Positions 3,377 to 35,989 of a DNA stretch of 41,518 nt are shown in pieces. The DNA is taken from IMG/VR virus record IMGVR_UViG_2802429248_000002. One strand, 5' to 3'. Every line of letters starts with the position of its first letter. Position 1 is the first letter of the stretch. Made by a program: the position numbers and the translations under genes. The notes beneath the pieces are model-generated. The model was not told where the DNA came from. It saw only the letters and a program-made list of their open reading frames with translations, and searched no databases. Source of the DNA: a virus. Lineage: Duplodnaviria; Heunggongvirae; Uroviricota; Caudoviricetes.

Positions 3377-6133
3377 TTAGCTACTTTCAAGCATTGCAAG
3401 ACGTGATTCTATTTTTTCGATTCTTCTACGCAAATAAGCTGACTCAAGCCATAAACACTGGTCAGTACGGATACCCCACCTATTTCCAGCCTTGCAAACC
3501 AGAGTTCGCTCTTCTGTTTCGTATTCTTCTTCCATCTCAATTTCGACGCCATCCACAACTTTAGTGATCATCCTTACCGCCATCACTGGCGCGTATTTAT
3601 CATCCCATTCATCGTAACAGAGAAGGCCAAATCTGGTTCCATCAATCCCATGCGCGAGGAAAGTGTCTCTCACTTGTTGTGCTATAACACCAAAATGCCA
3701 GCGGGCACCATCTCCCTTTTCCCTGACGGCATCAAGCCAGCGAAAAGCTACAATCCTGATATCTCCCCATGCATCCAGAATTGCATCACCTTCATAACCA
3801 CGAGACATATACAAGCTGAGCTCACTTGTACTAATCGGTTCACTTTTTTCTCTACCATCTGATGTGTTTATCGAACCGTTCGCAGAATAAACCTGTGCCC
3901 ATCTAAATGATGGTGCACCAAGAGATTTGCTGTTATCAATAATTGGTGAAAAATTACCTTTAATAGCAATATTTCCAGAGTCGCCGAATATATTAATAAC
4001 TGCAGAGTCATCACCATGGTTTTTTACGCTTAAGTTTCTTGATGAAATATTTATATCTTTGTTATATCCACTAACATTAATCCATCTTTTACCATCAATG
4101 TGATACCCGTAAATATTTCCGTTTGATTGTTCGTCAGGTGACTCTCTAAGAACAATAGCATCTACTCCAGACGACCATTGTATTTTTGTATCTGTAGGCC
4201 TCCAGTTCTTTATAATGAACGAACCATCAGTAAACTCCGTTTTTATTTGTCTATTGTCTACAAATGCGTCTCTTGGTTTAAACTCACTTGTGTTAACGCT
4301 GCTCTGAAGATCAGAAGCAAAAAATCTAAGATTTCCTGTATAACCCTTAGTCTCGGTCAGGTTATACGCAATCATAATTCCATTTTCAAACTCAGATGAT
4401 GTTATTTTAACATCACGGCAATCACCAAAAATGCAATTTCCTTTATCAAATGTTGTTTGAGCTTTGAATTTATCAAACCTTAAATTACGAACAGGGAAAC
4501 CATCAACCTCTAATGCAAAGGATGCAGGAAGGCCAAAGTATTCTGATGGCTTACCTGATGTATGATCAAGAGTAGTGGCTACTGTATTCTCAAAAACAGT
4601 CCCGCTAAAATTATTACCAATTGACGGAAACCTGATTACACTTATTGTACCTTGTATTTCAGGAGAAATACCAGATAGTGTGATGTTAGCTCCATCAAAT
4701 GATGCATCTGAATACGTATATACTGATTCACTGCCAGCAATTTTAAACTGTTTAACTGAAGTTATTCTCATCGACTTTTTATGTTTAAATGTCACTGAGC
4801 TTTCAGTATTACTTACAAGATCAATCTGAGGGCTATTCCTTATCGCGATCCCTGACTGGACATAAACGTTATTAAAGTGCGTTTTTTCAGGATTTCCCTT
4901 CATTGAAAGGCTCCCGTCATTTTCTGTCAGTAGTAGTCCTTTTACCCTCCAATAGCCGACAATCTGTACGTTATCAATAACTGAATCACAGCTATCGTAT
5001 ACATGCAACCCTATATCCCAGTCATCACCCAATGAATAAGAATCAGGGTTATTGTATCCTTCAATACCATTTTTACTTACCATTATTCTCAGGTTGCGTA
5101 ACTGTGATGCCCTGTTGATACTAACAGCTACGCTCATGGCTTTTGGTGTAGCAGGAGTAACACCTACAGAATCTTCATTTGTAAACTCAGTGAACTTACA
5201 AGATATCCCTTCAACAATTTTAACTGGTCTTTCATTAGAGATGTTAAAAAAATATTTGTTTTTTTCTCCATCACCAGTAAATACAAGATGGGTTCCTTTA
5301 CTCCAACTTTTTAATAATCTTTCAGGCGCTGGTCTATATGTATCCCAATAATCAATGCCATCACCAATTAAAGACACTCCAGGAGGCACATCTATGTTCT
5401 TAGAAATCATCCATTTACCTGCAGGTATTCTAACGACACTTGCACCAGAATTTATCGCATTAATTAACCATTCAGACGCATCAACTTCAAAATTTAATGC
5501 AGCATATCTTTGCTCAAACGGAACAAAATCAAGAGCGTTAACGTTATCCCGCATCTTATCCTGGAACGTTCGGTATACTGCTCCAGAACCATACTGAATA
5601 AACCAACCAAAACCACCAACAACTCCGGCGATTGCAGCATCAACATAATTGCGCATTGATCGATTATTTACAGCATCCTGCTCAAGTGATGGATCTGCAA
5701 GGTTAGAAATTTTGTTTTGCTTTGCATCGTAATATTTTGCAAGCAAAGATGGTTTCATCAATGCACGTCTGAACCATCCAAAACATTGCTGGATCAGCAT
5801 CGTCAGATAGTCAAAGGCATCTTCATGCACCTCGGGGAAAAATTTTCCCTGATTACGAAGATCAGTCTCCTGCACCACATCAAGCACACGATCTATCGTA
5901 ATTCGCCATCCAGCAGCAAGCGGCGACGGAAGAACAACAGAACCGCCACTATAAGTGCCCGCCCCTGTTACCGTATAACCGGTATCCAGAACCAATTCTG
6001 TTACGTTCCCGTTCAGGTCAGACACCTGAACAACCAGGTCGGATTTTTTGAAAATACGGAAGGTATACGGAAATGATGTCGTAGCTCCGTTACCTGTGTA
6101 TTCGTTGTGGTCAACTTCGGTTGAGACCGTCAT
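3377..6133 (-). CDS. Tailspike protein with C-terminal intramolecular-chaperone-like domain
   Basis: 918 aa. N-terminus MTVSTEVDHNEYTGNG..TSFPYTFRIFKKSDLVV resembles the conserved particle-binding head of epsilon15/phiV10-type tailspikes (memory). Central region is Asn/Ser/Gly-rich as in beta-helix depolymerases. C-terminal ~150 aa (..TSDGREK..) resembles the self-cleaving chaperone domain (peptidase S74-like) of endosialidase-type tailspikes. Confidence 0.8.
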   Translation of the reverse strand: MTVSTEVDHNEYTGNGATTSFPYTFRIFKKSDLVVQVSDLNGNVTELVLDTGYTVTGAGTYSGGSVVLPSPLAAGWRITIDRVLDVVQETDLRNQGKFFPEVHEDAFDYLTMLIQQCFGWFRRALMKPSLLAKYYDAKQNKISNLADPSLEQDAVNNRSMRNYVDAAIAGVVGGFGWFIQYGSGAVYRTFQDKMRDNVNALDFVPFEQRYAALNFEVDASEWLINAINSGASVVRIPAGKWMISKNIDVPPGVSLIGDGIDYWDTYRPAPERLLKSWSKGTHLVFTGDGEKNKYFFNISNERPVKIVEGISCKFTEFTNEDSVGVTPATPKAMSVAVSINRASQLRNLRIMVSKNGIEGYNNPDSYSLGDDWDIGLHVYDSCDSVIDNVQIVGYWRVKGLLLTENDGSLSMKGNPEKTHFNNVYVQSGIAIRNSPQIDLVSNTESSVTFKHKKSMRITSVKQFKIAGSESVYTYSDASFDGANITLSGISPEIQGTISVIRFPSIGNNFSGTVFENTVATTLDHTSGKPSEYFGLPASFALEVDGFPVRNLRFDKFKAQTTFDKGNCIFGDCRDVKITSSEFENGIMIAYNLTETKGYTGNLRFFASDLQSSVNTSEFKPRDAFVDNRQIKTEFTDGSFIIKNWRPTDTKIQWSSGVDAIVLRESPDEQSNGNIYGYHIDGKRWINVSGYNKDINISSRNLSVKNHGDDSAVINIFGDSGNIAIKGNFSPIIDNSKSLGAPSFRWAQVYSANGSINTSDGREKSEPISTSELSLYMSRGYEGDAILDAWGDIRIVAFRWLDAVREKGDGARWHFGVIAQQVRDTFLAHGIDGTRFGLLCYDEWDDKYAPVMAVRMITKVVDGVEIEMEEEYETEERTLVCKAGNRWGIRTDQCLWLESAYLRRRIEKIESRLAMLESS

Positions 6134-6238
6134 GTTAAATCTCCAGATAGTCGCAGCACCCGTTGCGCCGCATATCTGGTTATTCTATTACCTGAAAAAC
6201 CACATATGGATAGAAAGACTGTAAATACGAACAGATAT

Positions 6239-6253
6239 TACCTTTCAGGTGAT
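6239..6253. promoter_or_regulatory. Operator-like palindrome TTACCTTTCAGGTGA (imperfect member of the TTACC-N5-GGTAA family)
   Basis: Lies in the divergent region between the tailspike start (6133) and the LexA-box gene (6329). Confidence 0.45.
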
Positions 6254-6291
6254 TCGCAAAACGTGCTGGATAGCAAACAAATTATTTGATA

Positions 6292-6307
6292 CTGTATAAA
6301 TATACAG
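6292..6307. promoter_or_regulatory. LexA box (SOS box) CTGTATAAATATACAG
   Basis: Perfect CTGT-N8-ACAG with AT-rich spacer, flanked TA..TT (TACTGTATAAATATACAGTT, 6290-6309). Sits 22 bp upstream of ATG 6329 and overlaps a TTGATA -35-like hexamer (6286-6291). Confidence 0.75.
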
Positions 6308-6328
6308 TTATTGCATGGAGAAGATAAG

Positions 6329-6586
6329 ATGCAGCAGTATCACTATCCACTGGAAGACGGATTTACCGAAAGGATTCACACGCCGGGAGGCGTCAGGTCA
6401 CTGGTGGAGGGATCGCACTTGATGAAATTACTCCGGGATCTCGATAAGGATGGATTTAATGTCGATGGCCCACTTGCCGAACTGACTGCACTGATTAACT
6501 ACGTCACCAGCTCACAGATGTCTATGCGGGATCTGCAAACACATCTCGACTATTGTGCCGAACAATTACGAAAACAAACCCGGTAA
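6329..6586 (+). CDS. Small SOS-regulated protein, antirepressor C-terminal-domain-like (Tum/Ant-like candidate)
   Basis: ATG 6329 with GGAG 8 nt upstream; 85 aa. About half its residues match the C-terminal ~80 aa of the Bro-N protein at 7732-8418 (shared LxxDG.DV.G..AELT...........RD.QTH). Confidence 0.6.
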   Translation: MQQYHYPLEDGFTERIHTPGGVRSLVEGSHLMKLLRDLDKDGFNVDGPLAELTALINYVTSSQMSMRDLQTHLDYCAEQLRKQTR

Positions 6587-6608
6587 ATTTAAAGGCCGCA
6601 AGAGCGGC

Positions 6609-7337
6609 CTATCGTTTCGCTTTGTGCTCATCCCAGCACGTTTTGCACCATGCCATTAAGCCGTCCGCATTTTGATTATTAGGGTAAAAGCTGGTTCGTT
6701 TTCTGCGGACATTACAAATTGGGCACCACTTCATATGGCGTGTATTCTTTGGGCCATCGAGACACCTTGCACACCATTTAGTCAATCCATCTGGATTTTT
6801 TGACGATTTCCTGAATTTTTCATATGGAAGGTTTATTCTGCATCGCAAGCACTGCTTGCTACCACTTGAAACTCTGTTAGCTGATTCTTCTTTTGGCGGC
6901 GATACAGAAGGTATTCTTGCTGGCTCTGATATTGCCTGAGGTGCTTTTTTAGATGACTGAGACGATATGTCATCACCAGGGAATCTTCCATGATATGCCG
7001 GACGCGTTGACACTCCAGGTGGAATCTCAGCTGTAAACGGCTTTGGCTGAATCAGTTGCCTCTCTTTTGCTAACTCCTGCTGTTTATAATATGTCTGGAT
7101 TACCGCACTATCATAAGCAGGAGGTGCGGAAATATTAGGCGCATTACCTCCAGTTTTTTGAAACTGAGTAGAGGTGTGTTCTATCACCTGTGTACGATTA
7201 ATCGTTATCTCCCCATCTTCGGTCTTTATCGTTTTGTTATGATTAACGACCGTACGATCAGAGATCTTAGTCTTGTTCTGGTTGATAACGTAAATAATCA
7301 CCGCAACCACACCAACAACTATCCAGAAAACTTCCAT
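6609..7337 (-). CDS. Membrane-anchored protein with tandem Cys-rich (zinc-ribbon-like) C-terminal repeats, unknown function
   Basis: 242 aa. N-terminal TM helix (EVFWIVVGVVAVIIYVI), Pro/Ser-rich linker, then two repeats of CxxC..(F/Y)..DGL..WCxxC. Operator palindrome about 20 bp upstream of the start codon. Confidence 0.55.
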   Translation of the reverse strand: MEVFWIVVGVVAVIIYVINQNKTKISDRTVVNHNKTIKTEDGEITINRTQVIEHTSTQFQKTGGNAPNISAPPAYDSAVIQTYYKQQELAKERQLIQPKPFTAEIPPGVSTRPAYHGRFPGDDISSQSSKKAPQAISEPARIPSVSPPKEESANRVSSGSKQCLRCRINLPYEKFRKSSKNPDGLTKWCARCLDGPKNTRHMKWCPICNVRRKRTSFYPNNQNADGLMAWCKTCWDEHKAKR

Positions 7338-7357
7338 TGCTTTTCCTCACAATAACA

Positions 7358-7465
7358 TTACCTTAAAGGTAATATCTTGCTTTCAGGTGATCAAGCGTTA
7401 AACGCAATCAACCAAATACGGTTGATTTTAATGTTTCTTCGCGCTTATCATTACCTTTACGGTAA
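7358..7465. promoter_or_regulatory. Two operator palindromes (TTACCTTAAAGGTAA 7358-7372; TTACCTTTACGGTAA 7451-7465) in the divergent region between 6609-7337 and 7732-8418
   Basis: On the minus strand TTGATC-17 bp-TACCTT precedes the first palindrome, giving a promoter whose -10 is overlapped by the operator. A TTGATT (7422-7427)-17 bp-TTATCA (7445-7450) plus-strand promoter abuts the second palindrome. Confidence 0.5.
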
Positions 7466-7558
7466 ATTTACATAGCACTCCTCTTGTGCCATAGTAATCG
7501 GGCACTGGCAAAATCCAGTGCCGGGATTGGCGTCCCGGATTACTACAGAGGCACATAT

Positions 7559-7578
7559 GCCGCATAAGCGGTTTTTTT
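7559..7578 (+). terminator. Short intrinsic terminator/attenuator-like hairpin in the leader of the Bro-N gene
   Basis: Stem GCCGC (7559-7563), loop ATAA, GCGG, then seven T (7572-7578); preceded by an 8-bp stem hairpin GGCACTGG-CAAAAT-CCAGTGCC (7501-7522). Confidence 0.4.
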
Positions 7579-7731
7579 ATGTGTAAAGCGCACCTATTCT
7601 ATGGTGGGCTGTGTGGGGGCACCGAAAGGTGCGCCGGGTCCTTTGTAGCCGGTTACGCCAACCCTGCACAGTTCACCACCAACCGATTGGCGTCGGTAGT
7701 GGTGATTAACCTAACTACAAAGGTGATCACT

Positions 7732-8418
7732 ATGACTGCTAACGTAACCCCATCTGTTTTTCATTTTGAATCAGAAGCAACCATTCGAGCCATTGTTATT
7801 GATGGAAATCCTTGGTTTGTTGCCAAAGACGTTATTAAAGCTCTTCAACTGACAAACCCCACTATGTCAATAAAATCTCTTGATGATGATGAAAGGGCTA
7901 AATTTAACTTAGGCCGTCAAGGCGAAACCAATATTATCAACGAGTCAGGCCTCTACACACTGATCCTCCGCTGCCGCGATGCGGTGACACCAGGCACTAT
8001 CCCATACCGCTTTCGTAAATGGGTTACAGGTGAGGTTCTTCCTCAGATCCGCCGCACCGGAAGTTACATTAAAAACTCGCTCCCGCAAGAAGAACGCATA
8101 AAGATGGTTGCCGACCAGGTAGCCAACGCCACAGCATCAGCAGTGATGCAGGCAATGAAGATAGAGAACAAAACCTACAGCGCCCCACTAAAGCCCGGCT
8201 ACCGCAGTCTGATTCACTCGCCGTCTGGTGTTCTCGGCCTGACGGAGAACTCACTGCTGATGAATCTGCTGAACCAGTTACAGGACGACGGGCACGACGT
8301 ATCGGGCGCGGCGGCGGAGTTGACCACCATGTTCTGCTACATCGTCGGTGTGAACAAATGCCTGCGTGATATCCAGACGCACGCGGAGTACATCAACGAC
8401 AAAGCAGGGTTCTTCTGA
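7732..8418 (+). CDS. Bro-N domain protein with antirepressor-like C-terminal domain
   Basis: Start taken at MTANVT (ATG 7732, aaaggtga upstream); the longer track ORF begins in a structured leader. N-terminus (FHFESEATIRAIVIDGNPWFVAKDVIKALQLTNP) matches the Bro-N signature; C-terminus is paralogous to the 6329-6586 protein. Confidence 0.7.
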   Translation: MTANVTPSVFHFESEATIRAIVIDGNPWFVAKDVIKALQLTNPTMSIKSLDDDERAKFNLGRQGETNIINESGLYTLILRCRDAVTPGTIPYRFRKWVTGEVLPQIRRTGSYIKNSLPQEERIKMVADQVANATASAVMQAMKIENKTYSAPLKPGYRSLIHSPSGVLGLTENSLLMNLLNQLQDDGHDVSGAAAELTTMFCYIVGVNKCLRDIQTHAEYINDKAGFF

Positions 8419-8434
8419 CGGGCGGTGGCATTCG

Positions 8435-8460
8435 TTAAAACAAGGCCGCTTTTGCGGCCT
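8435..8460 (-). terminator. Intrinsic terminator at the 3' end of the minus-strand virion operon
   Basis: GGCCGC-TTTT-GCGGCC hairpin (8444-8459) followed on the minus strand by TTGTTTTAA; lies just after the lipoprotein gene stop (8476). Confidence 0.55.
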
Positions 8461-8475
8461 GTGACATGTCACGAC

Positions 8476-8889
8476 TTATAAAGATGACTGATATTTTACA
8501 ACTCTGTTCATGGCATCTTTTTTCACCGAGCTGATATCAGTTCTTATTTTGGCTTCGTCATTACTGTTTATCATGCTATTAACTTTTTGCACTGACATGC
8601 CGTTTCTTTCAGCCATTGCACATACAGCAGCATCGTATGAAGAACTCGCTGCGATGGATATCACCTTGTTACACTCAAACACAGCACCTTCAGCAATATC
8701 AGATGCCGATGATGCTGGCTTGGTATAAGTCTTGACGTAGTGATCAATACAACTATCCTTCGCCGTCTTGGCAAGAGAAAAATCCATTTTAACTTTGTCG
8801 CAATATGCCTTATCAACACCGTCATAAACATCATAGGATGTCGAGCAAGCGGATATCAAAAATACCGATAACAGCAATAATTCCTTCAT
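8476..8889 (-). CDS. Phage-encoded lipoprotein (moron), candidate superinfection-exclusion or surface factor
   Basis: 137 aa; signal peptide MKELLLLSVFLISAC with lipobox; six further Cys; gene looks AT-rich by eye; tacked on 9 bp after the stop of the large internal virion protein gene. Confidence 0.55.
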   Translation of the reverse strand: MKELLLLSVFLISACSTSYDVYDGVDKAYCDKVKMDFSLAKTAKDSCIDHYVKTYTKPASSASDIAEGAVFECNKVISIAASSSYDAAVCAMAERNGMSVQKVNSMINSNDEAKIRTDISSVKKDAMNRVVKYQSSL

Positions 8890-8898
8890 TGTTGTTCC

Positions 8899-11373
8899 TT
8901 ATTGCGGAGTGACATCCTGAGGTCGCCACCAGTATGTCTGGTTAAACTCTTTCTTCGAACGTTGCTCCATTTTACGCAAATAGCCTGGTGAAAAATACTC
9001 CTGCATCTGGTTAAAGATCATATGATCGAGAGCCGCCTTCAAGTACCAGAGATTCGCACCTGGCATCAGCCCCTTCCCCAGCTTAACCAGATCACCACCA
9101 GTCTGCTCACTCTTCCCTTCCACAGCATTTAGCGGTATGCCCTGAGCTATCTTCACTACGTCATCAACCAGACCAGCTACCGGGCCAAGCATCGACGCCA
9201 GCGCGCCGCTCCCGTACCTAGTGTGGTCAGAGAAAAGAAAATCACCGTACAACCCAGCCCCGCCACCTTTTAAAAATGCATTTATCCAGAATTTAACCAT
9301 GTGGTCACCGGTCATTTCCTTTGGATTTCTCCCATTAATAAGATCAGTAATCTGCATGGAAAGAGCACCAAGCATGGTTGTGCTTGCTAAAAACGTTGCT
9401 ATATATGCTGCACGCCCACCAGCAGACGGCATACCCATAGCGCGTGACCAGTGACGCATAACAACCGAGATAGGGAACGATTTAAACAGGAAAACACTTC
9501 TCGTTAATTCACCTTTCCATGTTCCACGCTGAAGACCAGACCCTACGAACATCTGCTCACGTGCGCCCGGTGTAATAACAGCCATATCAACTTCTTCAGT
9601 TACGGCACCGAGCAGTTTACGCATTGCCTCAAATTTCACGCGTTCAGGCTCACCAAGATGTTTAACTGCTGAATCAGGGATACGCATAATGCTTTCCGGT
9701 GTCAGCATCGTATTATTACCGTTCCCCCAGTCCTCCTGTTGCGCCAGCTTCCATACGCTCCAGTCTGTGTCAGTAATCCCTTTACTTTTCAGGATACGAA
9801 AATCAGAGTCATCGAGGCTACGAAGGTCTGGTGTCCGTGACACTACTTCTCCCAGGCTTCCCATCATGGTTACGCCATAGGCGCGCTTGTGCGCATCTGA
9901 CCATGCTGTAAGCCCACTGGCACGCATTACCGCCGTTGCCGCCCAACGAGACACAGACGGCCCCATATTATCCATCGCCCAGCGGTTAACGCTGCCAAGT
10001 AGAGATTCCATCGCCAGGCCAGCGCGGCGCGCCCGCGCAAGCTCAGTACGGTTCGTTGGGTCCATAGCTTCAAGCTGGTTGCGAAATAACTGGTTCATTG
10101 GAAGGTTGGTAACCTTCGCAGACAGATACATGGTTCCAAGATCAGAGAACGATGACAGCAACGCGGATCCGAGTCTGCTGGCAACCAGCCAGTTGCGGAT
10201 ATTGTCAGACCATCGCGCGATGTGCGGATTCGCTACAGGCTGTGTTTTTCCGGAAATAAAGTTGTACAAGTTCTCTGTTTTGTTCGCCAGACGCTCGACG
10301 CTACCGGTTTTACTCGGGTTAGCTGTTGCCGTTTCTGCCTTAACCTGATCAAGAAGGGAGCGGAAAACATGATCGGGGTTTGGACCATATGTTTCCACCA
10401 GAGCAATATCTTTACTGATACCTTCCAAGTGACCGACCATGATTTCCCATAGAGAGCGATCACCATAAAGTTGTTGATATTGGAGATAGGAATCTGCATC
10501 TTTGAAATGTATCTGTCGTGATGCATTACCACGGTTAGCACGTGCGCCGGAAATTCGCATTCCGGTATCAGTAAGCTTATTCAGCCCACCAGTAGCGATC
10601 GTGTTATAAGCCTCTCCAAGAAATGCAGACAACTCGGCATCGTTCATCAGTTGTCCATCGGCTCGGGTATAATATTTGCGATCCAGCTTACCTATAACAT
10701 CGCCAACCCACTTATCCTTTGATACCGCCCCAACCTTTTCCATAGAATGATGTTGAGGGATCCCCCAGTTTTCGAGATAGCCAATGTCCCCACCAGCATC
10801 ATTAAACCGGCGGCGCAGCAGCTCTGTAACTTCTCTCCACGCCTTAGCACCTTTTCTTGCTTTAGCATTGCCAGTATTTTGCCCCCGCATTTCATATACC
10901 AGGTCACGTACGCCCGCTTCATCTTCAAACAGACCAAAAAAGCGAGGATCAACTGCTTCGAATGCCTCCTGCAATTGACTCAATGCATAATCACGGGTGG
11001 CTTTTGTTCTGGATTCAACAGAGAGGAAATTAGATTTACCGTCTGCATTAAAAGCTATAGTACGGTTAAGAGCTCCAAGTTTCCCATCAGCCCCTTGATA
11101 GCTATTGATAAATTTATCCAATCTCTGACGCGCGGCTATAGTGAGAGCCACACGACGTTTCTTTAATGCCGCTTCTCGCTGTAATTCTTCAGATGCCAAT
11201 TGTGCTGCTCGATATAGCCGCTCTGATTCGGAAAGTTGTCTCCACGACATCGGGTCATCACGAGCAATGGAGCGCATATTTCGATAAATGCGGTCTTCAA
11301 TGTTCTGTATTTCTCGCGCCGTTAACGTGCGCTGCGCCGCCTGCTGGACCGCTTGTATACATTCCTGTCTCAT
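8899..11373 (-). CDS. Large internal virion (core/ejection) protein, gp16-like by position
   Basis: 824 aa, last large ORF of the internal-protein series preceding the tailspike module; assignment by size and synteny only. Confidence 0.5.
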   Translation of the reverse strand: MRQECIQAVQQAAQRTLTAREIQNIEDRIYRNMRSIARDDPMSWRQLSESERLYRAAQLASEELQREAALKKRRVALTIAARQRLDKFINSYQGADGKLGALNRTIAFNADGKSNFLSVESRTKATRDYALSQLQEAFEAVDPRFFGLFEDEAGVRDLVYEMRGQNTGNAKARKGAKAWREVTELLRRRFNDAGGDIGYLENWGIPQHHSMEKVGAVSKDKWVGDVIGKLDRKYYTRADGQLMNDAELSAFLGEAYNTIATGGLNKLTDTGMRISGARANRGNASRQIHFKDADSYLQYQQLYGDRSLWEIMVGHLEGISKDIALVETYGPNPDHVFRSLLDQVKAETATANPSKTGSVERLANKTENLYNFISGKTQPVANPHIARWSDNIRNWLVASRLGSALLSSFSDLGTMYLSAKVTNLPMNQLFRNQLEAMDPTNRTELARARRAGLAMESLLGSVNRWAMDNMGPSVSRWAATAVMRASGLTAWSDAHKRAYGVTMMGSLGEVVSRTPDLRSLDDSDFRILKSKGITDTDWSVWKLAQQEDWGNGNNTMLTPESIMRIPDSAVKHLGEPERVKFEAMRKLLGAVTEEVDMAVITPGAREQMFVGSGLQRGTWKGELTRSVFLFKSFPISVVMRHWSRAMGMPSAGGRAAYIATFLASTTMLGALSMQITDLINGRNPKEMTGDHMVKFWINAFLKGGGAGLYGDFLFSDHTRYGSGALASMLGPVAGLVDDVVKIAQGIPLNAVEGKSEQTGGDLVKLGKGLMPGANLWYLKAALDHMIFNQMQEYFSPGYLRKMEQRSKKEFNQTYWWRPQDVTPQ

Positions 11374-35286: not shown

Positions 35287-35349
35287 TCACCTATAAGGTA
35301 ACAAAAATCAAGGATAGTTACCCATGAGGTGCATTTACCTGTTGGGTAA
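35287..35349. promoter_or_regulatory. Immunity-region operator cluster: three sites (TCACCTATAAGGTAA 35287-35301; TTACCCATGAGGTGC 35318-35332; TTACCTGTTGGGTAA 35335-35349)
   Basis: Clustered palindromes in the divergent Cro-like/repressor intergenic region, analogous in layout to lambdoid tripartite operators. Confidence 0.55.
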
Positions 35350-35404: not shown

Positions 35405-35989
35405 ATGAAAAGTATCCAGGACGTCCGCAGGCAAAATCTCAACGACTTGATCGACCGTGAATTCAATGGTGTTCAGACGCGGATGGCTGAAAAACTTGGA
35501 ACTCAGGCAAATCTGGTAAACCGCTGGGCTCTTGGCAAGAAGGTTATCGGCGACCAGGTTGCGCGAAAAATTGAAGCTGCCGCCAATAAACCCCGTAACT
35601 GGCTTGATATCGATCGCTCGCTTTCTCAGGAAGGTTTTCAGCCTGTCGGCCCGAGTGATATAGGTCAGCTGGCTGCTCACAACCTGGAACGCTGGATGAG
35701 CGAAAGCCGCGACCTTTCAACGCAGGGAAAACTACACCGCGCATCCGGCGTCGCCCAGGTGACAATCAGCCGCCTGTTAAACAATGAGGTCAGCGTTTCC
35801 ATTTCCACCCTGGAGAATGTTGCATCCGCATTCGGGCGTCATGGCTATGAATTACTGATTCACCCGCACGACCCTGCGACTATCAACTATGACCGCTCGC
35901 GCTACGCATTGTTACCCGAAACCGAGAAAGCAAAGATCGAAAGTTACATTGAATTTGTCATCAACCAGAACGAAAAAAACAAACAATAA
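35405..35989 (+). CDS. XRE-family repressor-like protein with two HTH motifs and no S24 autocleavage domain (putative immunity repressor)
   Basis: 194 aa; HTH 1 GVQTRMAEKLGTQANLVNRW, HTH 2 ASGVAQVTISRLLNNEVSVS; no GDSM/Ser-Lys peptidase signature; flanked by operator clusters on both sides; terminator immediately downstream. Confidence 0.55.
   Translation: MKSIQDVRRQNLNDLIDREFNGVQTRMAEKLGTQANLVNRWALGKKVIGDQVARKIEAAANKPRNWLDIDRSLSQEGFQPVGPSDIGQLAAHNLERWMSESRDLSTQGKLHRASGVAQVTISRLLNNEVSVSISTLENVASAFGRHGYELLIHPHDPATINYDRSRYALLPETEKAKIESYIEFVINQNEKNKQ

Follow-up and report, generated by a model that had tools for sequence, protein, structure and literature searches.

The 41,518-nucleotide virus record IMGVR_UViG_2802429248_000002, the whole of which is referred to below as the window, carries two genes whose products share an antirepressor domain of about 80 residues. 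One of them, ant (6329..6586, plus strand), encodes a free-standing antirepressor of 85 amino acids (aa), the small Ant. The other (7732..8418, plus strand, start as in RefSeq) encodes a 228-aa paralog, the Bro-N::Ant fusion or large Ant, in which the domain lies C-terminal to a Bro-N domain. The two proteins are probably antirepressors that direct one SPC32H-Ant-type domain against Rep, the repressor of the phage, with a different signal releasing each. An earlier note on the window, the sequence-only reading, had proposed two differently regulated inputs onto one target. This proposal is supported, with the common target supported indirectly by the co-occurrence of Rep, invariant residues, selection, a natural chimera, and the behavior of a protein from phage vB_EcoP_ZX5 (ZX5).

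Large Ant/Bro-N antirepressors are annotated in thousands of prophages and the part that binds the repressor is rarely known. The C-terminal ∼80 residues of the fusion are a paralog of the one small antirepressor that has been crystallized with its repressor, which provides a testable assignment of the repressor-binding module. The shared C-terminal module would also explain the free swapping of N-terminal domains between phages, and in a single phage one repressor would respond both to DNA damage, via LexA, and to a second immunity that is based on RNA. The components are all of known kinds, namely the SPC32H Rep/Ant pair, P1-type c4 control, and Bro-N antirepressors. Two features appear not to have been described in the searchable literature: an RNA-controlled large antirepressor sharing the Rep-binding domain of a small SOS antirepressor, and the shuffling of this domain behind five N-terminal domains.

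A domain shared by the small Ant and the Bro-N fusion

Residues 2–79 of the 85-aa protein align without a gap to residues 147–224 of the 228-aa Bro-N protein (BLASTP, E=3e-16), with 32 of the 78 positions identical (41%) and 56% positives. The Smith–Waterman score for the pair is 163, compared with 26.5 ± 4.4 (maximum 62) in 2000 shuffles (z=31). The alignment is significant, and the duplicated domain that the sequence-only reading had described in the small protein and the Bro-N protein C-terminus is therefore real; its estimate of roughly half identity was too high. The gene layout is also as it had been described: both genes are on the plus strand, the first ends 1.15 kb before the second begins, and a minus-strand gene for a 242-aa protein with a hydrophobic helix lies between them. 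A tblastn search placed the two domain copies at 6332–6565 and 8170–8403 and revealed no third copy in the window; one weak match at 39536–39631 (E=0.016) is probably due to chance.

The two domain segments are 48% identical in DNA sequence, indicating an old duplication. In each lineage, identity between the small and fused classes is ∼40%, and the two make up separate, old clades. Among 33 sequences from both classes, 17 residues are invariant (Y149, P152, I161, H162, P164, G166, L170, S174, M177, L180, G187, V190, G192, A195, E196, Y203, and H217 in fusion numbering). Recent gene conversion was considered for the segment DGHDVSGAAAE, which is identical in Klebsiella small and fused copies, and was rejected because synonymous sites differ and the paralogs are ∼40% identical everywhere.

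The small Ant is an ortholog of the Ant protein of phage SPC32H. Its residues 2–84 match chain E of PDB 5D50 (SPC32H Ant) with E=1.4e-46, it is 86.7% identical to SPC32H ant by tblastn, and it matches phrog_450. Neither Pfam nor NCBIfam has a model for the domain, and the corresponding PHROG carries the label 'unknown function', which explains why the small ant gene is mostly annotated as hypothetical, including in phages phiV10 and ZX5. The SPC32H Rep/Ant switch was reportedly described by Kim & Ryu 2013 and Kim et al. 2016, with the structures deposited as PDB 5D50 (the Ant-Rep complex) and 5D4Z. SPC32H Ant is a homotetramer; it is produced after LexA cleavage and inhibits the repressor via protein–protein contact (PMC7380047). 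SPC32H Rep contains DNA-binding, dimerization, and C-terminal tetramerization domains, the last of which also binds Ant (PMC9986798). These properties of SPC32H Rep and Ant are taken second-hand from PMC7380047, PMC9638917, and PMC9986798.

In the fusion protein, the Bro-N domain spans residues 18–104 (nucleotides (nt) 7783–8043) and scores 72.3 bits against Pfam PF02498, for which the cut-off is 25.6; the fusion of the second copy to a Bro-N domain thus stands as first read, whereas DNA binding by that domain was an assumption of the sequence-only reading. The Ant domain comprises residues 147–224 (nt 8170–8403), of which residues 147–223 match 5D50 chain E at E=1.9e-13. The fused domain has a dN/dS of 0.12–0.31 and is under purifying selection. 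Full-length fusions with at least 68% identity occur in Escherichia, Salmonella, Shigella, Citrobacter, Enterobacter, Klebsiella, and Raoultella. In an alignment of Bro-N::Ant homologs (A4), the fusions are mosaic, with the first ∼60 Bro-N residues highly variable and the linker of two types. The segment ESGLYTLILRCRDAVTPGTIPYRFRKWVTGEVLPQIR is almost invariant across genera in the same alignment.

The fused gene likely starts at ATG 7732, giving 228 aa as in RefSeq. A start at ATG 7579 (279 aa) is probably not used, as that open reading frame (ORF) reads in frame through the c4 RNA gene described below. The frame 7579–7731 through the c4 gene is open and joined to the Bro-N ORF, and many gene callers report 279 aa.

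A natural chimera, P0117 (84 aa; locus L007, 5001–5255), consists of a small-Ant N-terminal half and a fused-type C-terminal half, indicating that the halves of both classes are interchangeable. It is preceded by a LexA-like box, and the isrK/c4 cassette is deleted from its locus. In another protein, P0120, a small Ant is joined after 'DYCA' to the translation of the IsrK/c4 region. Judged from their sequences, P0117 and P0120 point to recombination or deletion between the paralogs.

The LexA box, the c4 antisense RNA, and the repressor Rep

The small ant gene is preceded by a LexA (SOS) box, TACTGTATAAATATACAGTT (6290..6309, plus strand), which matches the consensus at 18 of 20 positions. It is the sole such site in the 41.5-kb window, where 0 are expected by chance, and it is kept in SPC32H, phiV10, Tyrion, and a Klebsiella phage. 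The fused gene is not behind a LexA box; an IsrK/c4 leader is found there instead. Both regulatory elements of the sequence-only reading, a LexA site at one copy and a structured leader before the other, are thereby confirmed: the box is a consensus match conserved in relatives, and the leader is a real RNA, with isrK and C4 both above their Rfam gathering scores.

The leader begins with a promoter-like site for IsrK/c4/ant, TTTACA-17-CATAGT with a TG extension (7467..7495, plus strand), recognized by consensus match only. The IsrK small RNA, which is also the c4 target region, occupies 7502..7578 on the plus strand (Rfam RF01394 isrK, 76.8 bits; gathering score 50). An overlapping match to RF03163 c4-a1b1 at 7489–7541 scores 45.1 bits, slightly under the gathering score of 46.7. 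Two elements within IsrK, a1 (UUGGCGU, 7527–7533) and b1 (CUACAGAGG, 7543–7551), were assigned on complementarity to c4, and a terminator scan placed the IsrK terminator at 7559–7572, followed by a T run. The c4 antisense RNA follows at 7597..7683 on the plus strand (RF01695 C4, 79.5 bits; gathering score 45; model positions 1–87), with a predicted fold of −45.2 kcal/mol. In this predicted fold, b' (CCUUUGUAG, 7640–7648) is in the loop of c4 hairpin 2 and a' (ACGCCAA, 7655–7661) is single-stranded. Downstream of c4 are its target site a2 (UUGGCGU, 7687–7693) and b2 (CUACAAAGG, 7715–7723), the latter overlapping the Shine–Dalgarno sequence AAGGUGA of ATG 7732. The a' element is complementary to a1 and a2, and b' is complementary to both b1 and b2.

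Three-way covariation of the a and b elements was seen in seven cassettes, which come from Escherichia, Salmonella, Klebsiella, and Enterobacter. Three a1/a'/a2 sets were found (UUGGCGU/ACGCCAA/UUGGCGU, UUGGUCU/AGACCAA/UUGGUCU, and UUUGCAC/GUGCAAA/UUUGCAC), together with two b1/b'/b2 sets (CUACAGAGG/CCUUUGUAG/CUACAAAGG and CUAAGUGG/CCACUUAG/CUAAGUGG). At the sequence level, the compensatory change in the seven cassettes gives strong support to an antisense mechanism. No sar RNA and no P22_AR_N protein was found in 5900–9000, the part of the window scanned.

The presumed common target of both Ants, judging by homology, is the product of rep (35405..35989, plus strand), a 194-aa repressor homologous to SPC32H Rep (PDB 5D50_A, E=4e-42 over residues 1–190). 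The window Rep is 100% identical to the Reps of phiV10 and ZX5 and ∼42% identical to that of SPC32H. Among the Reps of the window, SPC32H, Klebsiella, and Tyrion, 14 positions are invariant in the last ∼35 residues, and the putative recognition helix NLVNRW is invariant in all four.

A palindrome, TTACC-N5-GGTAA (motif TTACCNNNNNGGTAA), matches the window 15 times at no more than one mismatch, against 0.82 matches expected (3009, 6238, 7358, 7451, 24975, 25592, 28530, 28548, 32942, 33004, 34950, 35287, 35335, 36047, and 36108). The copies are often paired and cluster around rep, in other early regions, and upstream of both ant genes; rep itself is flanked by those at 35287, 35335, 36047, and 36108. 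This motif is probably the operator of Rep (or of Rep/Cro). Upstream of the small ant promoter, a candidate Rep operator of the form TTACC-N5-GGTGA (6238..6252) ends 38 bp before the start of the LexA box, and its position is kept in SPC32H, phiV10, Tyrion, and the Klebsiella phage. Two perfect TTACC-N5-GGTAA copies precede isrK, one at 7358..7372 (144 bp upstream) and the other, a candidate Rep operator, at 7451..7465 (−51..−37 from isrK position 1). The −51 placement is kept in the near-identical E. coli P4 copy (L003), TL-2011b, Tyrion, and the Klebsiella phage, and the palindrome lies at −48 in phiV10; the half-sites of this cassette-promoter palindrome are conserved and the spacer varies. 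By analogy with C1 on the P1 ImmI operon, such operators would tie both ant promoters to Rep occupancy.

The proposed mechanism is as follows. LexA bound to the box at 6290–6309 would keep the small ant gene off, and DNA damage would remove LexA and allow Ant to be made. The Ant tetramer would bind the C-terminal tetramerization domain of Rep, split the Rep tetramer, and clear the operators, leading to prophage induction as in SPC32H. At the second gene, one promoter (∼7467–7495, beside the Rep-operator-like palindrome) would produce IsrK, stopping at the terminator, and read-through past this terminator would yield the c4 RNA and the ant mRNA. In the lysogen, c4 a'/b' would pair with a2/b2 and cover the ribosome-binding site, leaving the large Ant untranslated. 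The large Ant would be made when c4 is absent or outnumbered, for instance upon fresh infection of a cell without a matching c4; alternatively, the IsrK/a1b1 decoy RNA would release it by titrating c4 or by opening the leader. Its C-terminal Ant domain would then inactivate Rep, whether encoded by the phage itself or by a resident relative. The Rep proteins of related prophages already resident in the cell may be the main target of the large Ant. We infer both the binding of the fused domain to Rep and the timing of large Ant expression.

The fused domain, Rep, and competing explanations

Wherever a phage record contains the fused domain, a Rep homolog is encoded as well. The fused domain and its cognate Rep have diverged in parallel: the identities of Rep and of the fused domain to those of the window are 100% and 93–99% in E. 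coli, 78% and 77% in Enterobacter, and 45% and 54% in Klebsiella, respectively. Overexpression of ORF4 of phage ZX5 lowered lysogens from 1e9 to 1e6 (∼1000-fold) and the rep transcript by 75% (PMC9782041). The ORF4 product has the Bro-N::Ant architecture, with an Ant domain 97.6% identical to that of the window, and the Rep of ZX5 is 100% identical.

The Ant-domain family is small: in a set of 1.84 billion proteins, it amounts to 68 representative clusters at E≤1e-3. The domain is either free-standing, at 82–98 aa, or C-terminal behind Bro-N, AntA, Phage_pRha, or ORF6N; in TL-2011b it also occurs behind P22_AR_N, adjoining a sar RNA. The genomic slot was compared in eleven loci, which cover five fusion variants and come from Escherichia, Salmonella, and other hosts. 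The gene order of tail-fibre gene, small Ant, and fusion is the same in all eleven, all nine loci that were scanned for LexA sites have a LexA-like box upstream of the small Ant, and each fusion scanned has its own isrK and C4. The AntA domain of the AntA::Ant variant is 83% identical to those of Stx-phage antirepressors, and AntA N-terminal domains are widespread in annotated antirepressors. These comparisons, which are of sequences, indicate that N-terminal domains move between phage groups.

Some prophages in E. coli chromosomes (L013–L015) contain two full isrK-c4-fusion cassettes in addition to the small Ant. Their paired c4 RNAs differ in 'a' (GGCG vs GGUC) and have 'b' in common, and the Ant domains are 96–98% identical to that of the window. 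Salmonella enterica prophages (L010–L012) carry an Ant 100% identical to SPC32H Ant together with an isrK-c4-Bro-N::Ant cassette. TL-2011b has a third Ant-domain gene, encoding a P22_AR_N::Ant protein of 314 aa (6506–7450 of locus L002, minus strand), with the sar RNA at 7452–7519. The last 77 residues of its Bro-N::Ant and P22_AR_N::Ant proteins are identical despite nine synonymous differences. A 62-aa ORF upstream of the P22_AR_N::Ant gene appears Arc-like by eye, and Pfam assigned it no family.

A wider reading, which we offer tentatively and regard as possible but doubtful, is that the SPC32H-type Ant domain is a portable, repressor-specific 'warhead' that is used free under LexA or attached to interchangeable N-terminal domains, of which there are at least five, with two or more further circuits (c4/IsrK and Arc-sar) in control. 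If this is true, the stacked cassettes with different c4 specificities and the same warhead reflect an anti-immunity arms race with homoimmune relatives. If it is general, the C-terminal domains of Bro-N, AntA, and Rha antirepressors define the repressor that is hit and targets are predictable from sequence; small SOS antirepressors would be liberated warheads, and the N-terminal domains would have a separate function.

Several observations weigh against the action of both copies on Rep under separate control. Structure prediction, which the sequence-only reading had suggested as a check, was confident for the Bro-N domain and less so for the Ant domain. With a 33-sequence alignment, AF2 modeled the Bro-N domain at pLDDT ∼85, the helical linker at <50, and the C-terminal helical domain at 56–73, that is, with moderate confidence; on the single sequence, the pLDDT was 35. 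A Foldseek search of the PDB gave no match below E=1e-3 and did not retrieve 5D50; the top matches were DdrC and SKI/Dachshund, for the Bro-N part. Foldseek thus added nothing to the alignments, and the case for the fused domain rests on sequence. At 41% identity, the fused domain and the small Ant could differ in specificity. In the ZX5 experiment, the overexpressed protein was tagged and full-length, and its domains were not separated (PMC9782041). In phiV10, a 16-bp deletion (equivalent to 8264–8279 of the window) frameshifts the fused Ant domain, which accounts for its annotation as the split p23 (194 aa) and p22 (29 aa), and in O157 typing phages 9 and 10 the match to the fused domain is split into two pieces in the same way. 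All three are deposited as complete phage genomes, and the large Ant therefore appears to be dispensable. SPC32H, epsilon15, PAS61, BUCT711, and BUCT554 are without the cassette and have the small Ant only. The window also contains no separate icd-like/orf45 ORF, as the frame from ATG 7579 runs without a stop into ant, and by analogy with the known systems either c4 repression (as in P1) or IsrK activation (as in Gifsy-1) may dominate the window leader.

Other explanations place the target of the fused domain elsewhere. It might be aimed mainly at the repressors of related prophages, as trans anti-immunity in superinfection, with the small Ant serving self-induction. Action on non-cognate repressors is known for P22 Ant and for the Gifsy/Fels antirepressors. 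The ∼40% identity between the classes and their old, separate clades leave room for different specificities, and the stacks of two or three large Ants, with c4 'a' elements that differ and near-identical warheads, look like an arms race. Cross-reaction is plausible given the invariant positions in the fairly conserved C-terminal domain of Rep, and cross-talk between antirepressors is documented (PMC3121763). However, ZX5 ORF4 acted on ZX5 itself and the divergence of the fused domain tracks the cognate Rep, and we consider a target mainly in other prophages unlikely. This possibility overlaps with the explanation preferred here, a shared action on Rep, and differs only in which Rep matters in nature.

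The other alternatives give the fused domain no repressor contact of its own, or no function. Bro-N domains are commonly assumed to be DNA-binding, and all the attached N-terminal domains (Bro-N, AntA, Rha, ORF6N, and P22_AR_N) occur in phage regulators; with SPC32H Ant being a homotetramer, the C-terminal domain could be a mere tetramerization module that makes a Bro-N regulator multivalent on DNA, without contacting Rep. A generic module would be expected to spread more widely than 68 clusters and a domain that occurs in phage records only together with the Rep family. Five unrelated N-terminal domains in one slot suggest that the slot-specific function lies in the C-terminus, and ZX5 ORF4 behaves as an antirepressor, all of which make an oligomerization module improbable. 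A slightly smaller chance is given to the idea that the large protein acts through the small one, in mixed tetramers of fused and free subunits by which the cassette would tune SOS induction by blocking or boosting it. The same tetramer-forming fold is predicted for both classes, the 17 invariant residues are common to them, the chimera shows that their halves are compatible in one polypeptide, and the genes are neighbors in all loci examined, but the ZX5 ORF4 effect was seen during infection without an SOS stimulus. That the fused copy is a decaying recombination relic without present function agrees with the frameshifting deletion in phiV10 and the two typing phages and with the relatives that have no fusion. 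It is nevertheless very hard to reconcile with full-length fusions across seven genera, the dN/dS values, covarying RNA control elements, and the ZX5 phenotype, and conservation and selection already largely refute it.

Setting of the region and comparison with known systems

The window region shares 96–99.5% identity with prophages of many E. coli chromosomes and with three phages of the genus Uetakevirus (epsilon15-like podophages), namely TL-2011b, ZX5, and phiV10; the query is partly matched in 1000 of 5426 complete E. coli genomes, about a fifth. The window is thus an E. coli prophage of the epsilon15/phiV10 group, and the two genes lie in its anti-immunity region. This region is relevant to induction and superinfection in a group of prophages to which O157 and O103 phages of E. 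coli (phiV10 and TL-2011b) belong. On one side it is flanked by the tailspike gene (3377–6133, minus strand) and on the other by internal virion protein genes (from 8899 on, minus strand), among them a gene for an 824-aa internal protein.

The intervening 242-aa gene (6609–7337, minus strand) encodes a protein with an N-terminal hydrophobic/membrane helix and two C-terminal CxxC zinc-ribbon-like motifs, which matches phrog_6762 (function unknown) and weakly Stc1 and endonuclease VII-like proteins. It is missing from phiV10, ZX5, and Tyrion, and its slot elsewhere holds a YafO toxin, DUF4760, or nothing; the gene is a variable insert outside the antirepressor system. A terminator scan placed GC-rich hairpins at 6593..6610, between the convergent ant and 242-aa genes, and at 8443..8460, 3' of the Bro-N::ant gene and again between convergent genes. 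Between Bro-N::ant and the 824-aa internal protein gene is a 137-aa ORF with a lipoprotein-like signal (LISAC; 8476–8889, minus strand). Relatives have different small genes in the slot of this ORF; that of SPC32H and phiV10, for instance, encodes a membrane protein of 46 aa.

Among known systems, SPC32H has a small Ant 87% identical to that of the window, beside the tailspike gene, with the same LexA box and upstream palindrome, and a Rep that is homologous over its full length. The gene order of tailspike, ant, and internal proteins is also the same. SPC32H differs from the window in having no second Ant-domain gene and no isrK/c4 cassette, and its Rep is ∼42% identical.

ZX5 ORF4 (231 aa) resembles the window fusion in being a Bro-N::Ant protein with a near-identical Ant domain and an identical Rep, whereas its N-terminal ∼70 residues differ. 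In the stretch equivalent to 7579–7731, ZX5 has a separate 37-aa ORF annotated as 'ash family protein'. The only domain discussed in the ZX5 paper is Bro-N; neither SPC32H nor the IsrK/c4 leader is mentioned there, nor is the small Ant, which is annotated as hypothetical (PMC9782041).

The Gifsy-1 isrK-orf45-anrP operon resembles the window in having an IsrK with a terminator and read-through into a c4-like RNA region and an antirepressor gene. When IsrK is provided in trans there, it opens the leader and allows the antirepressor encoded downstream to be translated (Hershko-Shalev et al. 2016, PMC4825925). A separate antirepressor, small and under LexA control, is also present in Gifsy-1 (PMC3121763). 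Unlike in the window, the N-terminal domain of AnrP is ORF6N, and orf45, the counterpart of 7579–7731, is a separate ORF whose stop overlaps the antirepressor start and which couples translation. A comparison of the Gifsy-1 small antirepressor STM2621.1n with AnrP STM2616 gave no similarity (E=8.2), and generality of the shared-domain pattern is therefore not claimed.

In the ImmI region of P1 and P7, c4 RNA blocks synthesis of the secondary antirepressor Ant (PMC8198154). P1 likewise aims two antirepressors, the small Coi and the large Ant, at one repressor, and C1 controls the ImmI operon (PMC8198154). As in the window, c4 is full-length, a1/b1 lie upstream and a2/b2 downstream, and b2 is on a ribosome-binding site. 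The specificity elements covary between P1 and P7 as they do among the window relatives, and a repressor-operator-like site is present at the promoter. P1 and P7 have a separate small icd-like ORF between c4 and ant, to which its translation is coupled, whereas b2 of the window covers the Shine–Dalgarno sequence of the ant gene itself. The N-terminal domain of P1 Ant1/2 is AntA and that of the window fusion is Bro-N, although the AntA::Ant variant is found in the same slot of another prophage. The window Rep family differs from P1 C1.

The ImmI region of P22 (arc-mnt-sar-ant) is likewise a second immunity region with a large antirepressor under an antisense RNA. The likeness is closer in the relative TL-2011b, which has a sar RNA and a P22_AR_N::Ant protein with the same C-terminal domain; by analogy, this arrangement would be a P22 ImmI-like cassette.

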